A stretch of 64,000 nucleotides of DNA from a virus: IMG/VR virus record IMGVR_UViG_3300027712_001108, positions 64,001 to 128,000 of that record, one strand, 5' to 3'. A program made the translations under genes and the position numbers. The notes below the pieces were generated by a model. The model searched no databases and was not told where the DNA came from. It was given only the letters and a program-made list of their open reading frames with translations. Shown here piece by piece: positions 5,432-38,002 of this stretch (positions are counted from its first letter, which is position 1; each line of letters starts with the position of its first letter).

Positions 5432-5532
5432 GGGGTCGCACCGGCGCTGAAATCGCCTTACAGTAAGGGCAATGCCGGGAATGGAAATAGCGGCGATTGA
5501 TTGGACATTCGATAAGGTCCTCGACTCCACCA
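5432..5532 (+). ncRNA. tRNA-Ala/tmRNA-like acceptor RNA with non-canonical body
   Basis: GGGGTCG/CGACTCC-A-CCA with G3.U70. Confidence 0.6.
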
Positions 5533-5585
5533 AATTATGCTATATGGGCATGTGCCCAATAGGCGTAAGGCAAGCGGTTGCCAAC

Positions 5586-18145: not shown

Positions 18146-19135
18146 ATGAAAATATTAGCACTAAGCGTTGCGCTTACACTAGCAGCATTCACGACTGCGT
18201 CTGCCAAAGACGTTGTACAATTAACAGGAAGTTCTACAGTTTTGCCATTTGCCACAATTGCTGCTGAAGCATTTGGTGAAAATTACAAATTTGGCACGCC
18301 AATTGTTGAAGGTGGTGGTACTGGTGCAGGTATTGCAAAGTTTTGTGAAACTGATGATGCCGAATCAGTTGATATTGCTGATGCATCACGCAAGATGAAG
18401 TCAGGCGAATTGTCGCTGTGCCACAAGAACGGTGTTAGTAAAGTTCTTGAAGTGCGTATTGGCTATGATGGTATCGTATTTGCATCTGCTGCAAGCGGGC
18501 CAGAGTTTGCCTTTACTCCCAGTGACTGGTTCAAGGCACTGGCTGCTGAAGTTGACATAGACGGCAAGCTAGTACCCAATCCCTATACCAAGTGGAACCA
18601 AGTTGACCCCAAGTTGCCCGACCAAGAGATTTTGGTATTCATCCCAGGTACCAAACACGGCACACGCGAAGTATTTGACCAAAAGGTCGTCACCAAAGGT
18701 TGCACAGTATTCAAATCTGACAAACTGTTCAAAGCCCGCGATGGCAAGGCAGATGGTTGTACTGTACTGCGTAAAGATGGTCGTGCTGTGGAGATTGACG
18801 GCGACTACACCGAAACTCTAAAGCGTCTCGAAGCCAACCCAACATCTATGGGTGTATTCGGCTTGTCGTTCTATGAGAACAATACTGACAAACTGCGTGT
18901 GGCTACCTTCCAGGGTGTGGTTCCTAATAAAGAAACCATTGCTGCTGGCAAGTATGCAGTATCACGTCCGCTGTTCATGTATGTTAAGACACAACATTTT
19001 GGTACTACTCCTGGTTTGAAAGAGTTTGTACAATACGTTGTATCTGACGAACTGGCTGGCCCAAATGGCGTTATGGTAGAAGCTGGGCTTGTAGCTGATC
19101 CCAAGCTAGCAGAGACTCAAGCAAAAGTTAAGTGA
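18146..19135 (+). CDS. pstS: Phosphate ABC transporter substrate-binding protein
   Basis: Signal peptide, GSSTVLPF, GGTGAG, DIADASR and SRPLFMYV motifs. Confidence 0.9.
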   Translation: MKILALSVALTLAAFTTASAKDVVQLTGSSTVLPFATIAAEAFGENYKFGTPIVEGGGTGAGIAKFCETDDAESVDIADASRKMKSGELSLCHKNGVSKVLEVRIGYDGIVFASAASGPEFAFTPSDWFKALAAEVDIDGKLVPNPYTKWNQVDPKLPDQEILVFIPGTKHGTREVFDQKVVTKGCTVFKSDKLFKARDGKADGCTVLRKDGRAVEIDGDYTETLKRLEANPTSMGVFGLSFYENNTDKLRVATFQGVVPNKETIAAGKYAVSRPLFMYVKTQHFGTTPGLKEFVQYVVSDELAGPNGVMVEAGLVADPKLAETQAKVK

Positions 19136-19260
19136 TTGACCAACGGATGGTGCTCTACACAGGGCACCATCAACTACAATAAAATAGCCAAACAGTATTG
19201 ACATATACTACACAATAGTATACTTACTGTGTTACAGATACACACAGTTGGAGATATACG

Positions 19261-19593
19261 ATGCCTTGCAGCGATGGCGGATACAGCGACGAAGTTCGTG
19301 TTAGCCGAGATGAAGTTCAAGAACATACAATGTTGGAAGCTGCCATGTGCGGTATACTTACCGTGCTTGCAAAAAATGATTCTAATAACGACTTGGATTA
19401 TTTTTTCAAGAATGTCGATTGGAAAGAAGCTGGAGTCAAACGTAAGACACTTGAGATGTGGTGGCGTAAGCACAAGAAGCAAGATGAAGAACGTCGTGCT
19501 CGCGAAGCTGCTGCCCGCAACAAAGAACAACTCAAAGCCAGTGCAATCAACAAACTCACTGCGGAAGAACGTGCTGCACTGGGACTTTTGTAA
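19261..19593 (+). CDS. Hypothetical protein
   Basis: GGAG SD, TTGACA promoter upstream. Confidence 0.7.
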   Translation: MPCSDGGYSDEVRVSRDEVQEHTMLEAAMCGILTVLAKNDSNNDLDYFFKNVDWKEAGVKRKTLEMWWRKHKKQDEERRAREAAARNKEQLKASAINKLTAEERAALGLL

Positions 19594-19614
19594 CAAATCA
19601 AGAAAGATAGACGC

Positions 19615-20130
19615 ATGAAATACTTGGCATTTTTAGACATAGATGGTGTTTTTACATCTGCTCGTGTACAATATGCGTCTGCAAACTCCAATGATATGTG
19701 GAACAAATTCGACCCCACTGCAATCGAGTTTATGAACAAGTTGCACGACAGAGTCAAGGATCTGCATTTTGTTTTGATTTCAACATGGAAAGAACACTTG
19801 CGCGAAGCTGATGAACAAACTGCGCATTGGATAATTGCAGCTTTTCGTAATGCAGGATTTCGCGGCGAATTTGCATCGCCGTGGAAGACCAATCCTGACA
19901 ACTTTGCTCGCTTTTATGAGAAAGGTATGACTCGCGCCAATGAGATCAAAGAATATCTAGAAGTGTATGCACCAAGTAATCAAGACTATATCATCTTTGA
20001 TGACAACGACTACGGGTTCGAAACTGTACTTGGTAAGAATCGCTGGGTGCATACCGACGGAAACAATGGTATCCTGTTGAAACACATGTACAATGCCATG
20101 AGCATTGTAGGTGAATGGGATACAAAATAA
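19615..20130 (+). CDS. HAD-family phosphatase (RNA-repair-associated type)
   Basis: FLDIDGV, ISTW and IIFDD motifs. Confidence 0.8.
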   Translation: MKYLAFLDIDGVFTSARVQYASANSNDMWNKFDPTAIEFMNKLHDRVKDLHFVLISTWKEHLREADEQTAHWIIAAFRNAGFRGEFASPWKTNPDNFARFYEKGMTRANEIKEYLEVYAPSNQDYIIFDDNDYGFETVLGKNRWVHTDGNNGILLKHMYNAMSIVGEWDTK

Positions 20131-20348
20131 AAGTATCAGGCGGTTGGCTTAGAAGCAGCCATCCTTTGAAGAGTGGAACCAAGCACCATTGGACGCCAAA
20201 GAACCTGTATCGGGCTGCAAACGATTGCAAGTGGTGTAGGAGATTGCTATATGGAAAAATGCGGATAGTAACAGAGTCCCCAGTGACTACAAAGTAGTGC
20301 AACTGTACGGCAACTGTTTTCCTTTGGCGTAGCAGCACACTGATACTT
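20131..20348 (+). ncRNA. 23S rRNA L11-binding domain (H43/H44) mimic with ~150-nt insert
   Basis: GTTGGCTTAGAAGCAGCCATC ... GCGTAGCAGCACACTG closed by AAGTATCAG/CTGATACTT. Confidence 0.75.
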
Positions 20349-20420
20349 GTTTTAAACAGTTGACAACCACAACTGAAAAGTATATAACAAACTACAATAT
20401 AAACGTTAAAAGGAAATCAA

Positions 20421-20624
20421 ATGGACGCGACTCTTTTAATTATGGGCATGGCACTGTTTGCATGGCTTAATCATTCTCTTGCTACTCAGCGTGGTCGCAA
20501 TGCTGTAGGTTGGGCAGTTGGGGGTTTAATTTTTGGACTACTGTCTACCATCTTGCTGTTGATTTTGGGTAAAACTGAAGCACGTGAAGTTGAGATTTAT
20601 AAAAAATCCAACAGCGGCCAATAA
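20421..20624 (+). CDS. Small membrane protein
   Basis: Two hydrophobic segments, AAGGA SD. Confidence 0.7.
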   Translation: MDATLLIMGMALFAWLNHSLATQRGRNAVGWAVGGLIFGLLSTILLLILGKTEAREVEIYKKSNSGQ

Positions 20625-20636
20625 CTCGATAATCGA

Positions 20637-20711
20637 CCTGACTTAGTGATAGCGGTAGCACGTCGGTCTGTGGAACCGATAGGGATGGTTCGAGCCCATC
20701 AGTCAGGACCA
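20637..20711 (+). tRNA. tRNA-His(GTG), A73, no G-1
   Basis: Loop CTGTGGA. Confidence 0.9.
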
Positions 20712-20724
20712 TAAATAAAATTAT

Positions 20725-20800
20725 AGGGGTATAGCTCAGCTGGTAGAGCGTCGGTCTCCAAAACCGAATGTCGCGGGTTCGAATCCTGCTGCCCCTGCCA
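20725..20800 (+). tRNA. tRNA-Trp(CCA)
   Basis: Loop CTCCAAA. Confidence 0.95.
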
Positions 20801-20827
20801 TATTAACACTTACACGACACAATATAT

Positions 20828-20904
20828 GGCGTAGTAGCTCAGCTGGTTAGAGCACGCGACTCATAATCGCGGGGTCGATGGTTCAAGTCCATCCTACGCC
20901 ACCA
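20828..20904 (+). tRNA. tRNA-Met(CAT), elongator-like
   Basis: Loop CTCATAA. Confidence 0.9.
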
Positions 20905-20963
20905 AACATTTTTATTGTATATCGGCTAGAGATGATATATAATAGTGTTATAAAAGAAAACGT

Positions 20964-21093
20964 TCCCTAGTAGCTCAGGGGCAGAGCAGCTGACTGGGTC
21001 CGAAAATACTGTAAAGTGGATTTGTGGAGTTCGAAACTCCTAGGACAAAATTTAATCAGCGAGTCGGTGGTTCGAAACCATCCTAGGGAGCCA
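20964..21093 (+). tRNA. tRNA-Asn(GTT)-like with a 55-nt insertion in the anticodon
   Basis: Perfect acceptor TCCCTAG/CTAGGGA-G-CCA; GCTGA-CTG[55 nt]TTAA-TCAGC. Confidence 0.75.
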
Positions 21094-21099
21094 AAAATT

Positions 21100-21300
21100 T
21101 CAGAAGGCAGCGTAGCTTGCACGGATGAGTGTACCACTGCAAACCAAACTTAACTGTTTTGAGTTTTGTATGTCGCCACATCGAGGTCGGGAGATCTATT
21201 CCCTATATGAGTTAGCCAAGGCTCACTCATACTGGACAAGAGTAGATCATAACCTTGGGAACCCGGACGCTGAAAAGGGGATGCATACCCGTGCCTTTTG
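21100..21300 (+). ncRNA. Unclassified structured RNA
   Basis: Closing helix CAGAAGGCA/TGCCTTTTG, internal hairpins, no ORF. Confidence 0.4.
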
Positions 21301-27329: not shown

Positions 27330-28465
27330 TATTGGGTAGTAACACTGTTAAGTAGCATTTGGTGATTCTTATGTGAAACAACAGGGTTAAACGCTTTCAA
27401 CAATAAGTTGGGATGTTACAATTAATCACTGTATCTACCGACTGACGATAGAGTAACAGTATGTCGATGCAAACACAGTTAGCTTTAATACACCTAACAA
27501 CAGCGAATGCTCGTTGCTGCTGAAAGAAACGACGGATGATGCAGCTTTAAAGTCCGTTGAACGCTTCTGTTGTAGATGTATTAGAGTTTGGATGATACGG
27601 CCGTTGAGAAACGTGAATATCATCTATGAGATTGGGGGTTTAGCCTCAATAGGATAAGTGCAGTGATGCACCCAAAGCCGGAAAGCCTACATACCGGCGC
27701 TAGTAAAATAGTCCATCTAAACAAGCCTGAACCAGTGTTGACTCGGGCAACCGAAAGCAACACCCGTCCGTAGAAAGGCGGTAGGCAGTAAGTTAGGAGC
27801 TCTGTCCGAAAGGATAGTCGCAGAGCCAGTCGGTGAGCGATAAGAGGGTTGGCGCCCAAACAGAGTTCAGCCAAACTAACGAATGCTGACAGTTAACAGG
27901 TAGTTACAGTGTCTGAGCCCGCAAGCAAAGGCATGGTAGCATTTCAAGAGTGGAAGGGTTAGGCCCCGGATACTTGAAGAAAGGTCAAGTAGTTCGCAAG
28001 ACGAAAGACACGAGGTGTGTTGTATTGGGTATGCCAAAAGCATATTCAGCAGCGGTGGTAGCACATCTCAGATAGGTTGCAAATAACTCAGCGGTAGAGT
28101 AATTCCCTTCTAAGGAATCGGCGAAGGTTCAATCCCTTCTTTGATAAATGCAAAGTCTACCACGGTATGTTGTGTAAGGTGTCAAATACTTGAGGCGCAA
28201 GCCAATCAAGTTCAACAAAGCTCGCAAGGCAGCGTTGATTTGTACTAGAAGATTCGTAGCTCGCAAGGCTTAATGGTTCGCAAGATCAACGGATAATAAG
28301 GTGCAGAATAGCAGCATATGACGAGTCTACTGCCTGACTCTAAAAACGGCGACACTGTTAGTGGACCAGATTACCGCAAGGGATCTAGTGGATGTCGGAA
28401 GAAAGCAACTCGCAAGGTTGGTAATAATGTCCGAAGCATTAACATCGAACGTGTAATCTCAGCGT
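27330..28465 (+). ncRNA. Large ornate ncRNA, GOLLD-like (5' boundary uncertain)
   Basis: >1 kb with no credible ORF, dense GCAA/GAAA tetraloop hairpins, 3' GTGTAATCTCAG, inside a tRNA island. Confidence 0.7.
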
Positions 28466-37827: not shown

Positions 37828-38002
37828 GCGGTTGGTAATCCTGAAACCCTGAGACAAGTGAGGTGAGAACGCCCGTCTCACACACCAGCAATGGTAAAGT
37901 AGCGCAAGCGAAGAGATGCAGGAATCCTGTCTGTATGGCAGGTTGAAAACTGGGAACCTGCCACTTGTCAATACCCATTAAGATCGGCAGTAGGCCAACC
38001 AC
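37828..38002 (+). ncRNA. Unclassified structured RNA / 5' leader
   Basis: GGTTGGT/GCCAACC closure, GACAAGTG/CACTTGTC, GGCAGGTT/AACCTGCC. Confidence 0.45.

Follow-up and report, generated by a model that had tools for sequence, protein, structure and literature searches.

The element and its parts

The window analysed here is a stretch of 64,000 nucleotides of viral DNA, positions 64,001 to 128,000 of the IMG/VR record IMGVR_UViG_3300027712_001108. On its plus strand, positions 20131-20348 hold a 218-nt non-coding RNA element, both ends of which fold as a copy of the GTPase-associated centre (GAC) of 23S ribosomal RNA (rRNA), that is, of the top of helix 42 (H42), H43 and H44 (E. coli 1051-1108). 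The 5' part, CAGGCGGTTGGCTTAGAAGCAGCCATCCTTTGAAGAG (20137-20173), resembles 23S rRNA 1053-1089, and the 3' part, GCGTAGCAGCACACTG (20327-20342), resembles 1091-1106. Both are enclosed by a closing helix, P1, in which AAGTATCAG (20131-20139) pairs with CTGATACTT (20340-20348) over 9 bp with no mismatch. These strings and the perfect closing helix were all found as described in an earlier reading of the same DNA made from its letters (the sequence-only reading). E. coli 23S numbering was projected onto the window so that G20139 is G1055, A20151 is A1067, A20172 is A1088, and A20331 is A1095. In this numbering, the parts of the element are the following.

20131-20139, plus strand: 5' strand of P1, AAGUAUCAG, approximately the top of H42 (E. 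coli ~1047-1055)
20140-20164, plus strand: junction nucleotides G1056 and C1057 and the H43-like hairpin (1058-1080), placed by alignment to the large-subunit rRNA model
20165-20174, plus strand: linker U1081-U1090, UUUGAAGAGU
20175-20322, plus strand: insert of 148 nt, exactly between the equivalents of U1090 and G1091
20175-20178 and 20319-20322, plus strand: basal stem of the insert, GGAA with UUCC
20179-20184 and 20263-20271, plus strand: loop-E-like strand pair of the insert, CCAAGC and GGAUAGUAA
20205-20211 and 20233-20239, plus strand: arm A of the insert, stem CUGUAUC with GGUGUAG, inner hairpin at 20216-20229
20271-20317, plus strand: 3' module of the insert, with ACAG (20271-20274) facing CUGU (20314-20317), UCCCCAG (20277-20283), a hairpin (20286-20298) and CUGUACGGC (20303-20311)
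20323-20326, plus strand: UUUG linker, specific to the family described below and not in rRNA
20327-20339, plus strand: H44-like hairpin GC-GUAGCA-GC (1091-1100, with A1095 at 20331), then A1101, C1102 and A1103
20340-20348, plus strand: 3' strand of P1, CUGAUACUU, beginning with C20340 (C1104), complement of 20131-20139; the match to the family model ends here

The H43-like hairpin has nearly the same sequence as H43 of 23S rRNA, with U1060 at 20144, A1067 at 20151, and G1071/C1072 at 20155-20156. In the linker that follows, the tertiary pair U1082-A1086 falls at 20166/20170, A1085 at 20169, and A1088, the partner of U1060, at 20172; position 1084 is G (20168). From the end of this linker onward the order is GAGU-[G20175...C20322]-UUUG-GCGUAGCAGC-ACAC, which fits the family layout of insert, UUUR (R is A or G), GCGUARNAGC hairpin, and ACAC. 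For the inner hairpins of the insert, a constrained fold is the only source. Thermodynamically, the folding of the element as a whole is unremarkable (z = -1.34); because this value is not significant, it was not taken as evidence, and the support for the structure is comparative.

In a search with the Rfam bacterial large-subunit (LSU) rRNA model (RF02541), positions 20139-20186 aligned to model positions 1096-1145, corresponding to E. coli ~1051-1100. This is a local match of 18 bits (E 0.0018 for 501 nt searched), under the gathering score of 50, and no family of Rfam 15 reaches its gathering score for 20131-20348. At E values up to 10, the only hits were this sub-threshold LSU match and a preQ1-II riboswitch on the opposite strand, the latter dismissed as chance, and no ribosomal-protein leader family matched the element. 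The sequence-only reading had claimed that both rRNA halves stand in order with no other rRNA nearby, and this held: no second rRNA match was found anywhere in the 64-kb window. When 93 elements of the family were compared with the E. coli rrn operon by blastn-short, only the GAC match and two chance 12-mers were found. Further rRNA mimicry carried by the inserts was therefore rejected for the window.

A family of phage RNAs and its conserved positions

The sequence-only reading had proposed looking for homologues among LSU rRNA and phage metagenomes, and the search returned a family with a variable insert and a covarying closing helix. Phage records were searched by blastn, and shorter queries were used later for further carriers. 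The same architecture, never annotated, is present in cultured jumbo phages that are unrelated to one another: Pseudomonas phages UNO-G1W1, pf16, Milchi, and Astolliot, Aeromonas phage 4_4572, and Xanthomonas phage XacN1. The shorter queries added Cronobacter phage GAP32, Pectobacterium phage CBB, Serratia phage BF, Erwinia phages of the pEa_SNUABM group and Kaldavass, Xanthomonas phages XbC2 and XaC1, Vibrio phage 2.275.O, Ralstonia phage RSP15, and Acinetobacter phage ME3. One record was set aside, that of Paenibacillus phage Pd_22F (L004, MZ092003.1, ~83.4-84.1 kb), as it holds an unannotated stretch of true 23S rRNA sequence running past H44; this stretch is probably host DNA.

A scan of IMG/VR for the 3' motif gave at least 119 contigs. 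In a second scan, with the 5' motif as sole criterion, 89 contigs matched; true rRNA was not among them, and 45 loci were new. All but one of these 45 bear a close variant of the 3' motif UUU(G/A)GCGU(A/G)NNAGCACA(C/U); in the exception (L168), the stored DNA stops 102 nt downstream of the 5' motif. Together the two scans yielded at least 156 complete elements in at least 112 sequence groups, defined as clusters of complete elements at 85% identity. Insert size ranges from ~20 to >330 nt among the matches listed. In bacterial and archaeal genome assemblies, the 3' motif matches 77 contigs, 33 of which also have the 5' H43 motif upstream; about 30 of these look real and are mostly contigs of metagenome-assembled genomes with transfer RNA (tRNA) arrays, assigned to many phyla. 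The other 44 assembly matches were attributed to chance, with ~70 chance matches estimated from the size of the collection.

A covariance model, R1, was built from 37 phage members without the window and without its nearest relative, L047. It matches exactly 20131-20348, end to end (model positions 1-151), with 88.5 bits and E 1.8e-26, a result that chance does not explain, and this is its sole match in the 64 kb. On true 23S rRNA, R1 scores 61 bits for Paenibacillus and 47 bits for E. coli, and the insert and UUUG are all that it has to delete in either alignment. The element at 20131-20348 is best described as a member of a large, widespread, monophyletic family of phage non-coding RNAs. We found no published description of such an RNA in full-text literature searches, and to our knowledge no virus encodes a free-standing copy of a functional rRNA domain. 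We rate the element as a new kind, a virus-encoded free-standing mimic of an rRNA tertiary domain.

To follow individual positions, we aligned 91 distinct elements by anchors; column counts cover 68-74 members. As a guard against circularity, the 5' half was read from the 3'-motif sample and the 3' half from the 5'-motif sample. In P1, all four Watson-Crick pair types occur across nine covarying pairs, and 6.73 of the 8 variable pairs are paired on average, against 3.67 +/- 0.14 when partners are shuffled. The helix ends in G1055-C1104, which is invariant or nearly so. Since P1 has no conserved sequence beyond ~9 bp, with nothing kept where uL10 binds lower H42, the uL10 site is missing. The sequence-only reading had named uL10, beside uL11, as a protein that the RNA might titrate; with a free closing helix of ~9 bp this part of its proposal is unlikely.

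Inside the H43-like and linker regions, changes occur in pairs. Pair 1058-1080 appears as UA in 27 members, GC in 21, AU in 21, and CG in 2, being paired in 100% of cases against 42% after shuffling. The tertiary pair 1082-1086 of rRNA also covaries (UA 39, CG 21, AU 8; 93% paired against 59% shuffled). The pair U1060-A1088 is kept in 73 of 73 members, and G1059-C1079, G1071, C1072, and A1085 show no variation in the aligned members. Among 73 members, A1067 is A in 55 (75%), and the others have G (13), C (3), or U (2); 17 of the 73 have A1061. The near-invariant core consists of A1057, U1060, G1071, C1072, A1084, A1085, and A1088, and the window keeps five of these seven. Its exceptions are C1057, where 64 of 68 family members have A, and G1084, which is unique to the window, 67 of 68 members having A. 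Perhaps the window copy departs slightly from the consensus or is compensated locally.

In the 3' half, read from the 5'-motif sample, G1091, C1092, G1093, U1094, A1098, G1099, C1100, C1102, and A1103 are kept in 97-100% of members. A1095 is kept in 92%, either purine can stand at 1096, and 1097 varies freely. At 1101, where rRNA has U, 97% of members have A. The insertion point between U1090 and G1091 and the closing G-C pair of the insert are constant in the family, and pairs 2-4 of the basal stem of the insert covary (2.54 of 3 paired against 1.39 +/- 0.09 shuffled). The UUU(G/A) linker is present in 72-73 of 74 members selected on the 5' half alone. Over the whole structure, 91.8% of cells in the 37-member alignment are paired, against 68.1 +/- 1.0% after shuffling and 35-51% with partners slid. 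The covariation score is 0.604 against 0.151, and double changes are seen at 17 of 23 pairs. The fixed insertion point, UUUR, and A1101 are all absent from rRNA, and thus point to a single origin followed by spread among phages, rather than to repeated capture of host rRNA.

Compared with the 23S GAC, the phage RNA has the same GUAAYA-type H44 loop and junction adenines, the same tertiary pairs U1060-A1088 and 1082-1086, and the same triple-forming G1071 and C1072. It differs in being free-standing, in the helix of ~20 to >330 nt inserted at 1090/1091 with the extra UUUR, and in having A1101 where rRNA has U. Moreover, A1067 and A1095 are not strictly kept, and H42 is replaced by ~9 bp of free sequence without the kink-turn and the uL10 site.

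The insert had been described in the sequence-only reading as about 150 nt of unrelated structured sequence. An insert is indeed there, of 148 nt, but the word "unrelated" does not do it justice, as it occupies one fixed site across the family and has modules that recur in a quarter of the sequence groups. The insert of the window belongs to a subclass found in 28 of the 112 groups (among the matches listed). This subclass has a loop-E-like strand pair above the basal stem, with consensus C-GAAG opposite GG-N-AAGUR, corresponding in the window to CCAAGC opposite GGAUAGUAA. It also has a 3' hairpin module CACCCCG-NNNN-CGGUAAGGC, of which the window has the version UCCCCAG...CUGUACGGC with a longer hairpin. 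Arm A is preserved by compensatory changes in the four closest relatives.

In the same four relatives, GGAAAAA (20253-20259) appears as GGRAAAAU and is complementary to UUUUCC (20317-20322), the 3' strand of the basal stem. RNAalifold applied to these relatives proposed the GGAAAAA/UUUUCC pairing, which we rejected as the main structure because it breaks H44 and contradicts the family-wide covariation; it could be an alternative conformation. A different, long subclass of ~360-390 nt has a motif like the sarcin-ricin loop (SRL), AGUACGAGAGGA or GGUACGAGAGGA, inside the insert of two members (L031 and L041), so that a single RNA mimics both rRNA components of the factor-binding site. A third element, L070, was put in this subclass by its similar 5' part. 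The insert of the window has no SRL-like motif.

Genomic setting

The source record has 157,923 bp with a CheckV completeness of 30%, and the nearest relative, L047, sits on a 518-kb contig; the phage is therefore very large. ARAGORN predicted 34 tRNA genes in the window, all on the plus strand. The immediate neighbours of the element are the following.

19615-20130, plus strand: open reading frame (ORF) of 171 aa, upstream; its stop codon abuts P1
20421-20624: ORF of 67 aa, downstream of the element
20637-20904, plus strand: genes for tRNA-His, tRNA-Trp, and tRNA-Met (ARAGORN), downstream of the element

The product of the upstream ORF is the HAD domain of "Swiss Army Knife" RNA-repair proteins (Pfam PF18143 HAD_SAK_2, E 1.6e-15; phrog_1818). 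A HAD_SAK_2 gene also lies upstream of the element in L047 (4946-5458), with a tRNA-Thr in between. This tRNA-Thr(ggt) gene (region 5445-5550) ends a few nucleotides before the closing helix, with direct repeats CCAAAATAA on both sides. In the window there is one CCAAAATAA copy (20120-20140 region), overlapping the stop codon of the ORF, and no tRNA. It looks as if recombination between the short CCAAAATAA repeats had added or removed a tRNA gene. Elsewhere in L047, at 1007-1081, there is a tRNA with anticodon CTA (amber suppressor, labelled "Pyl" by ARAGORN), an anticodon absent from the 34 tRNAs of the window; stop codons might be recoded in this phage lineage. The tRNA region of the window also contains an auxiliary metabolic gene (18146-19135, plus strand), a 329-aa ORF with a PBP_like_2 domain of the phosphate-binding PstS type (E 1.6e-48).

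Across the family, the association with tRNA genes is strict in orientation. All 660 tRNAs predicted by ARAGORN around the 112 elements (among the matches listed) are on the strand of the element, and in 44 of these 112 elements a tRNA lies within 30 nt on either side. Both facts argue for co-transcription with the tRNAs and for ends cut by tRNA-processing enzymes. No terminator-like site was found on the plus strand in 19000-21200.

A conserved partner gene was rejected on two grounds. In an all-against-all blastp comparison of 1,212 flanking ORFs, no cluster was found in more than 4 of the 112 groups (among the matches listed), and in a Pfam scan of the 150 nearest ORFs no family occurred in more than two. 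Among these 150 ORFs, HAD_SAK_2 was seen twice (the window and L047), RNA ligase twice, and NADAR once. In XacN1 the ORF just upstream of the element is annotated as a 2'-5' RNA ligase. We found no uL11 gene in the record of the window nor in five complete carrier genomes, which makes a conserved component of the host the probable partner of the RNA. One of the five genomes, that of Pseudomonas phage UNO-G1W1 (L259, 96300-96383), has a 195-aa open frame with a partial bL12 domain (PF00542, 36 bits); one genome in five is too few to interpret.

Possible ligands and function

The phage family keeps exactly the fold features of the uL11-binding domain while its helices covary. Preservation of these tertiary contacts points to strong selection for interaction with the host translation apparatus. 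Everything beyond the GAC-like folding we infer, and this includes the roles suggested in the sequence-only reading: titration of uL11, a dampened stringent response, or a decoy for a toxin. Probably the RNA works off the ribosome by binding something that recognizes the GAC domain; judging by which positions are conserved, a ligand that reads the uL11-type fold is favoured. More specifically, the RNA could be a stable decoy of the stalk base that binds host uL11, which is our preferred reading, at about even odds.

Earlier work on the ribosomal domain fits this proposal. The 58-nt rRNA domain folds independently and binds L11 and thiostrepton, and the A1061 variant stabilizes its tertiary fold (PMC2719339). 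As the yeast domain is bound by E. coli L11 (PMC2175356), L11 reads fold rather than sequence. With the offset in numbering taken into account, the A-minor junction triples of Haloarcula marismortui match A1084 and A1085 on 1054-1105 and 1055-1104 (PMC1919483). In the phage family A1067 is A in only three quarters of members, so the fold seems more constrained than the base that contacts factors. On the ribosome A1067 is a key contact for factors, tRNA, and thiostrepton.

A possible course of events is as follows. The RNA would be co-transcribed with the tRNAs, and tRNA-processing enzymes would cut it to a stable species. Off the ribosome it would bind a host component that recognizes the GAC fold, most likely uL11, whose C-terminal domain reads the minor groove of H43 and the U1060-A1088 pair. 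With uL11 held, or presented as a uL11-loaded pseudo-stalk base, uL11-dependent events such as RelA activation might be altered, and molecules aimed at the GAC site could also be diverted by the RNA. The insert may supply a second, lineage-specific function.

Several observations weigh against a uL11-binding decoy. Binding of uL11 is deduced from conservation only, and the insert at 1090/1091 and the change of U1101 to A may not be compatible with it. The window copy deviates at the near-invariant positions C1057 and G1084, which could make its binding weaker than that of typical members. The element of the window has no abutting tRNA; the nearest lie 285 nt downstream and ~2.1 kb upstream, so that its ends might arise in another way. 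A decoy must also compete with tens of thousands of ribosomes. Finally, the presence of the SRL-like AGUACGAGAGGA in the ~360-nt subclass is a hint that the ligands may include translation GTPases or SRL-directed toxins in addition to uL11.

Other explanations fare worse in our estimate. One might suspect a fragment of host 23S rRNA that was captured or is decaying, or else a chimera made in assembly, since some "phage" records do hold true rRNA, as in Paenibacillus phage Pd_22F; but covariation, the shuffling tests, and the R1 match refute this, and we consider its probability negligible. The 112 groups (among the matches listed) show compensatory changes with no other rRNA nearby, every member shares the insertion site, UUUR, and A1101, which rRNA lacks, and the element is present in finished genomes of cultured phages. 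The sequence-only reading had argued for a selected structured RNA and against a random rRNA scrap, and it is borne out by more than 150 phage homologues with variable insert, covarying closing helix, and kept tertiary contacts. A cis-acting element, either a uL11-sensing leader for a downstream gene or a spacer guiding the processing of the tRNA array, would have a precedent, as mimicry of rRNA by mRNA leaders is the classical mode of autoregulation of ribosomal-protein operons (PMC3616713), and in the window a 67-aa ORF follows the element. However, in many members the close neighbours on one or both sides are tRNA genes, which leaves no ORF for such control; the genes downstream show no conservation, and none for ribosomal proteins is adjacent. 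A processing spacer, for its part, would need no copy of rRNA tertiary contacts. Cis regulation is contradicted by these comparative data, and we regard it as very improbable.

The main rival to a decoy that binds uL11 is a counter-defence decoy, in which free H43/H44, with or without uL11, would soak up effectors of the host or of competitors that recognize the domain, for instance ADP-ribosyltransferases, RNases, or thiopeptides, and so spare the ribosomes that translate phage mRNA. One bacterial toxin does act on this domain: Tre23 ADP-ribosylates H44 of 23S rRNA at ~1095-1098 and blocks the GTPase activity of EF-G (PMC8661411), and SRL-cleaving toxins exist as well (bioRxiv 10.64898/2026.09.18.752725). 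The element lies among phage tRNAs, sometimes adjoining genes for RNA repair or ADP-ribose reversal, and one subclass has the SRL-like motif. However, Tre23 and SRLase1 are interbacterial, and no anti-phage system is known to target the GAC. The loop modified by Tre23 is not strictly kept (A1095 in 92%, A or G at 1096, 1097 free), RNA-repair neighbours are few and typical for tRNA regions of large phages, and the stoichiometry against ~10^4 ribosomes is demanding. A toxin decoy is plausible, but on this balance we consider it unlikely. Still less likely, in our view, is a sponge or platform for translation factors, in which the RNA, and more so its relatives with the SRL motif, would bind EF-G, EF-Tu, IF2, RelA, or another factor, and by trapping it or through futile cycles would reprogramme host translation or the stringent response. 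Translational GTPases dock on H43/H44, which is near the elbow of the A-site tRNA (PMC8661411). SRL-like motifs are present in the ~360-nt subclass (L031, L041), but the insert of the window has no SRL copy, and A1067, the main contact of factors and tRNA, varies in a quarter of members. Isolated rRNA fragments also bind such factors weakly.

A broader view takes in both the uL11-binding decoy and the interception of attackers. The RNA might be a viral counterfeit of the ribosomal factor-binding site, forming a uL11-loaded pseudo-stalk base and, in the relatives with the SRL motif, a whole pseudo factor site. It would then intercept effectors such as ADP-ribosyltransferases, RNases, or RelA-type sensors, or blind the stringent response, thereby protecting phage translation. 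We hold this only tentatively and think it doubtful as a whole; if true, no earlier case of an rRNA domain decoy encoded by a virus would be known. The family is abundant, with more than 110 sequence groups in IMG/VR, and has gone unannotated in phages of Pseudomonas, Aeromonas, Xanthomonas, Erwinia, Serratia, Cronobacter, Pectobacterium, Ralstonia, Acinetobacter, and Vibrio. The identity of the ligand would bear on how phages take over or protect translation, and could explain part of the role of phage tRNA regions. The family would also offer a scaffold of a classic antibiotic target site that is natural, highly diversified, and able to fold independently. Because cultured carriers exist, the question is directly testable.

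Two known systems come close in principle. The mRNA leaders of ribosomal-protein operons (L10 leader RF00557; PMC3616713) are likewise RNAs off the ribosome that imitate the site of a ribosomal protein on rRNA; these leaders, however, act in cis in cellular operons and copy local motifs, whereas the phage RNA is stand-alone and copies a whole tertiary domain. The element of the window does not belong to the leader class, its neighbours being the HAD_SAK_2 ORF, the 67-aa ORF, and tRNAs, with no match to a leader model. The pseudo-ToxI RNA of phage PhiTE (PMC3475682) also acts by molecular mimicry. It imitates the antitoxin RNA of one defence system and is recent, whereas the GAC-mimic family, which is ancient and occurs widely, copies a domain universal to ribosomes.

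The stable RNAs C and D of phage T4 are comparable structured phage RNAs near tRNA genes. GOLLD (RF02032) and ROOL share with the GAC-mimic family the genomic niche beside phage tRNA genes. None of these RNAs imitates rRNA, and they have no relation to the family in sequence or structure. The window itself carries a GOLLD RNA (28012-28465, plus strand, 217 bits, E 4.6e-60), ~8 kb downstream of the element, with a tRNA-Arg(tct) embedded in it at 28077-28147. The third structured non-coding RNA in the window is a skipping-rope RNA (RF02924) at 37853-37969 on the plus strand, scoring 49.8 bits against a gathering score of 36.7.

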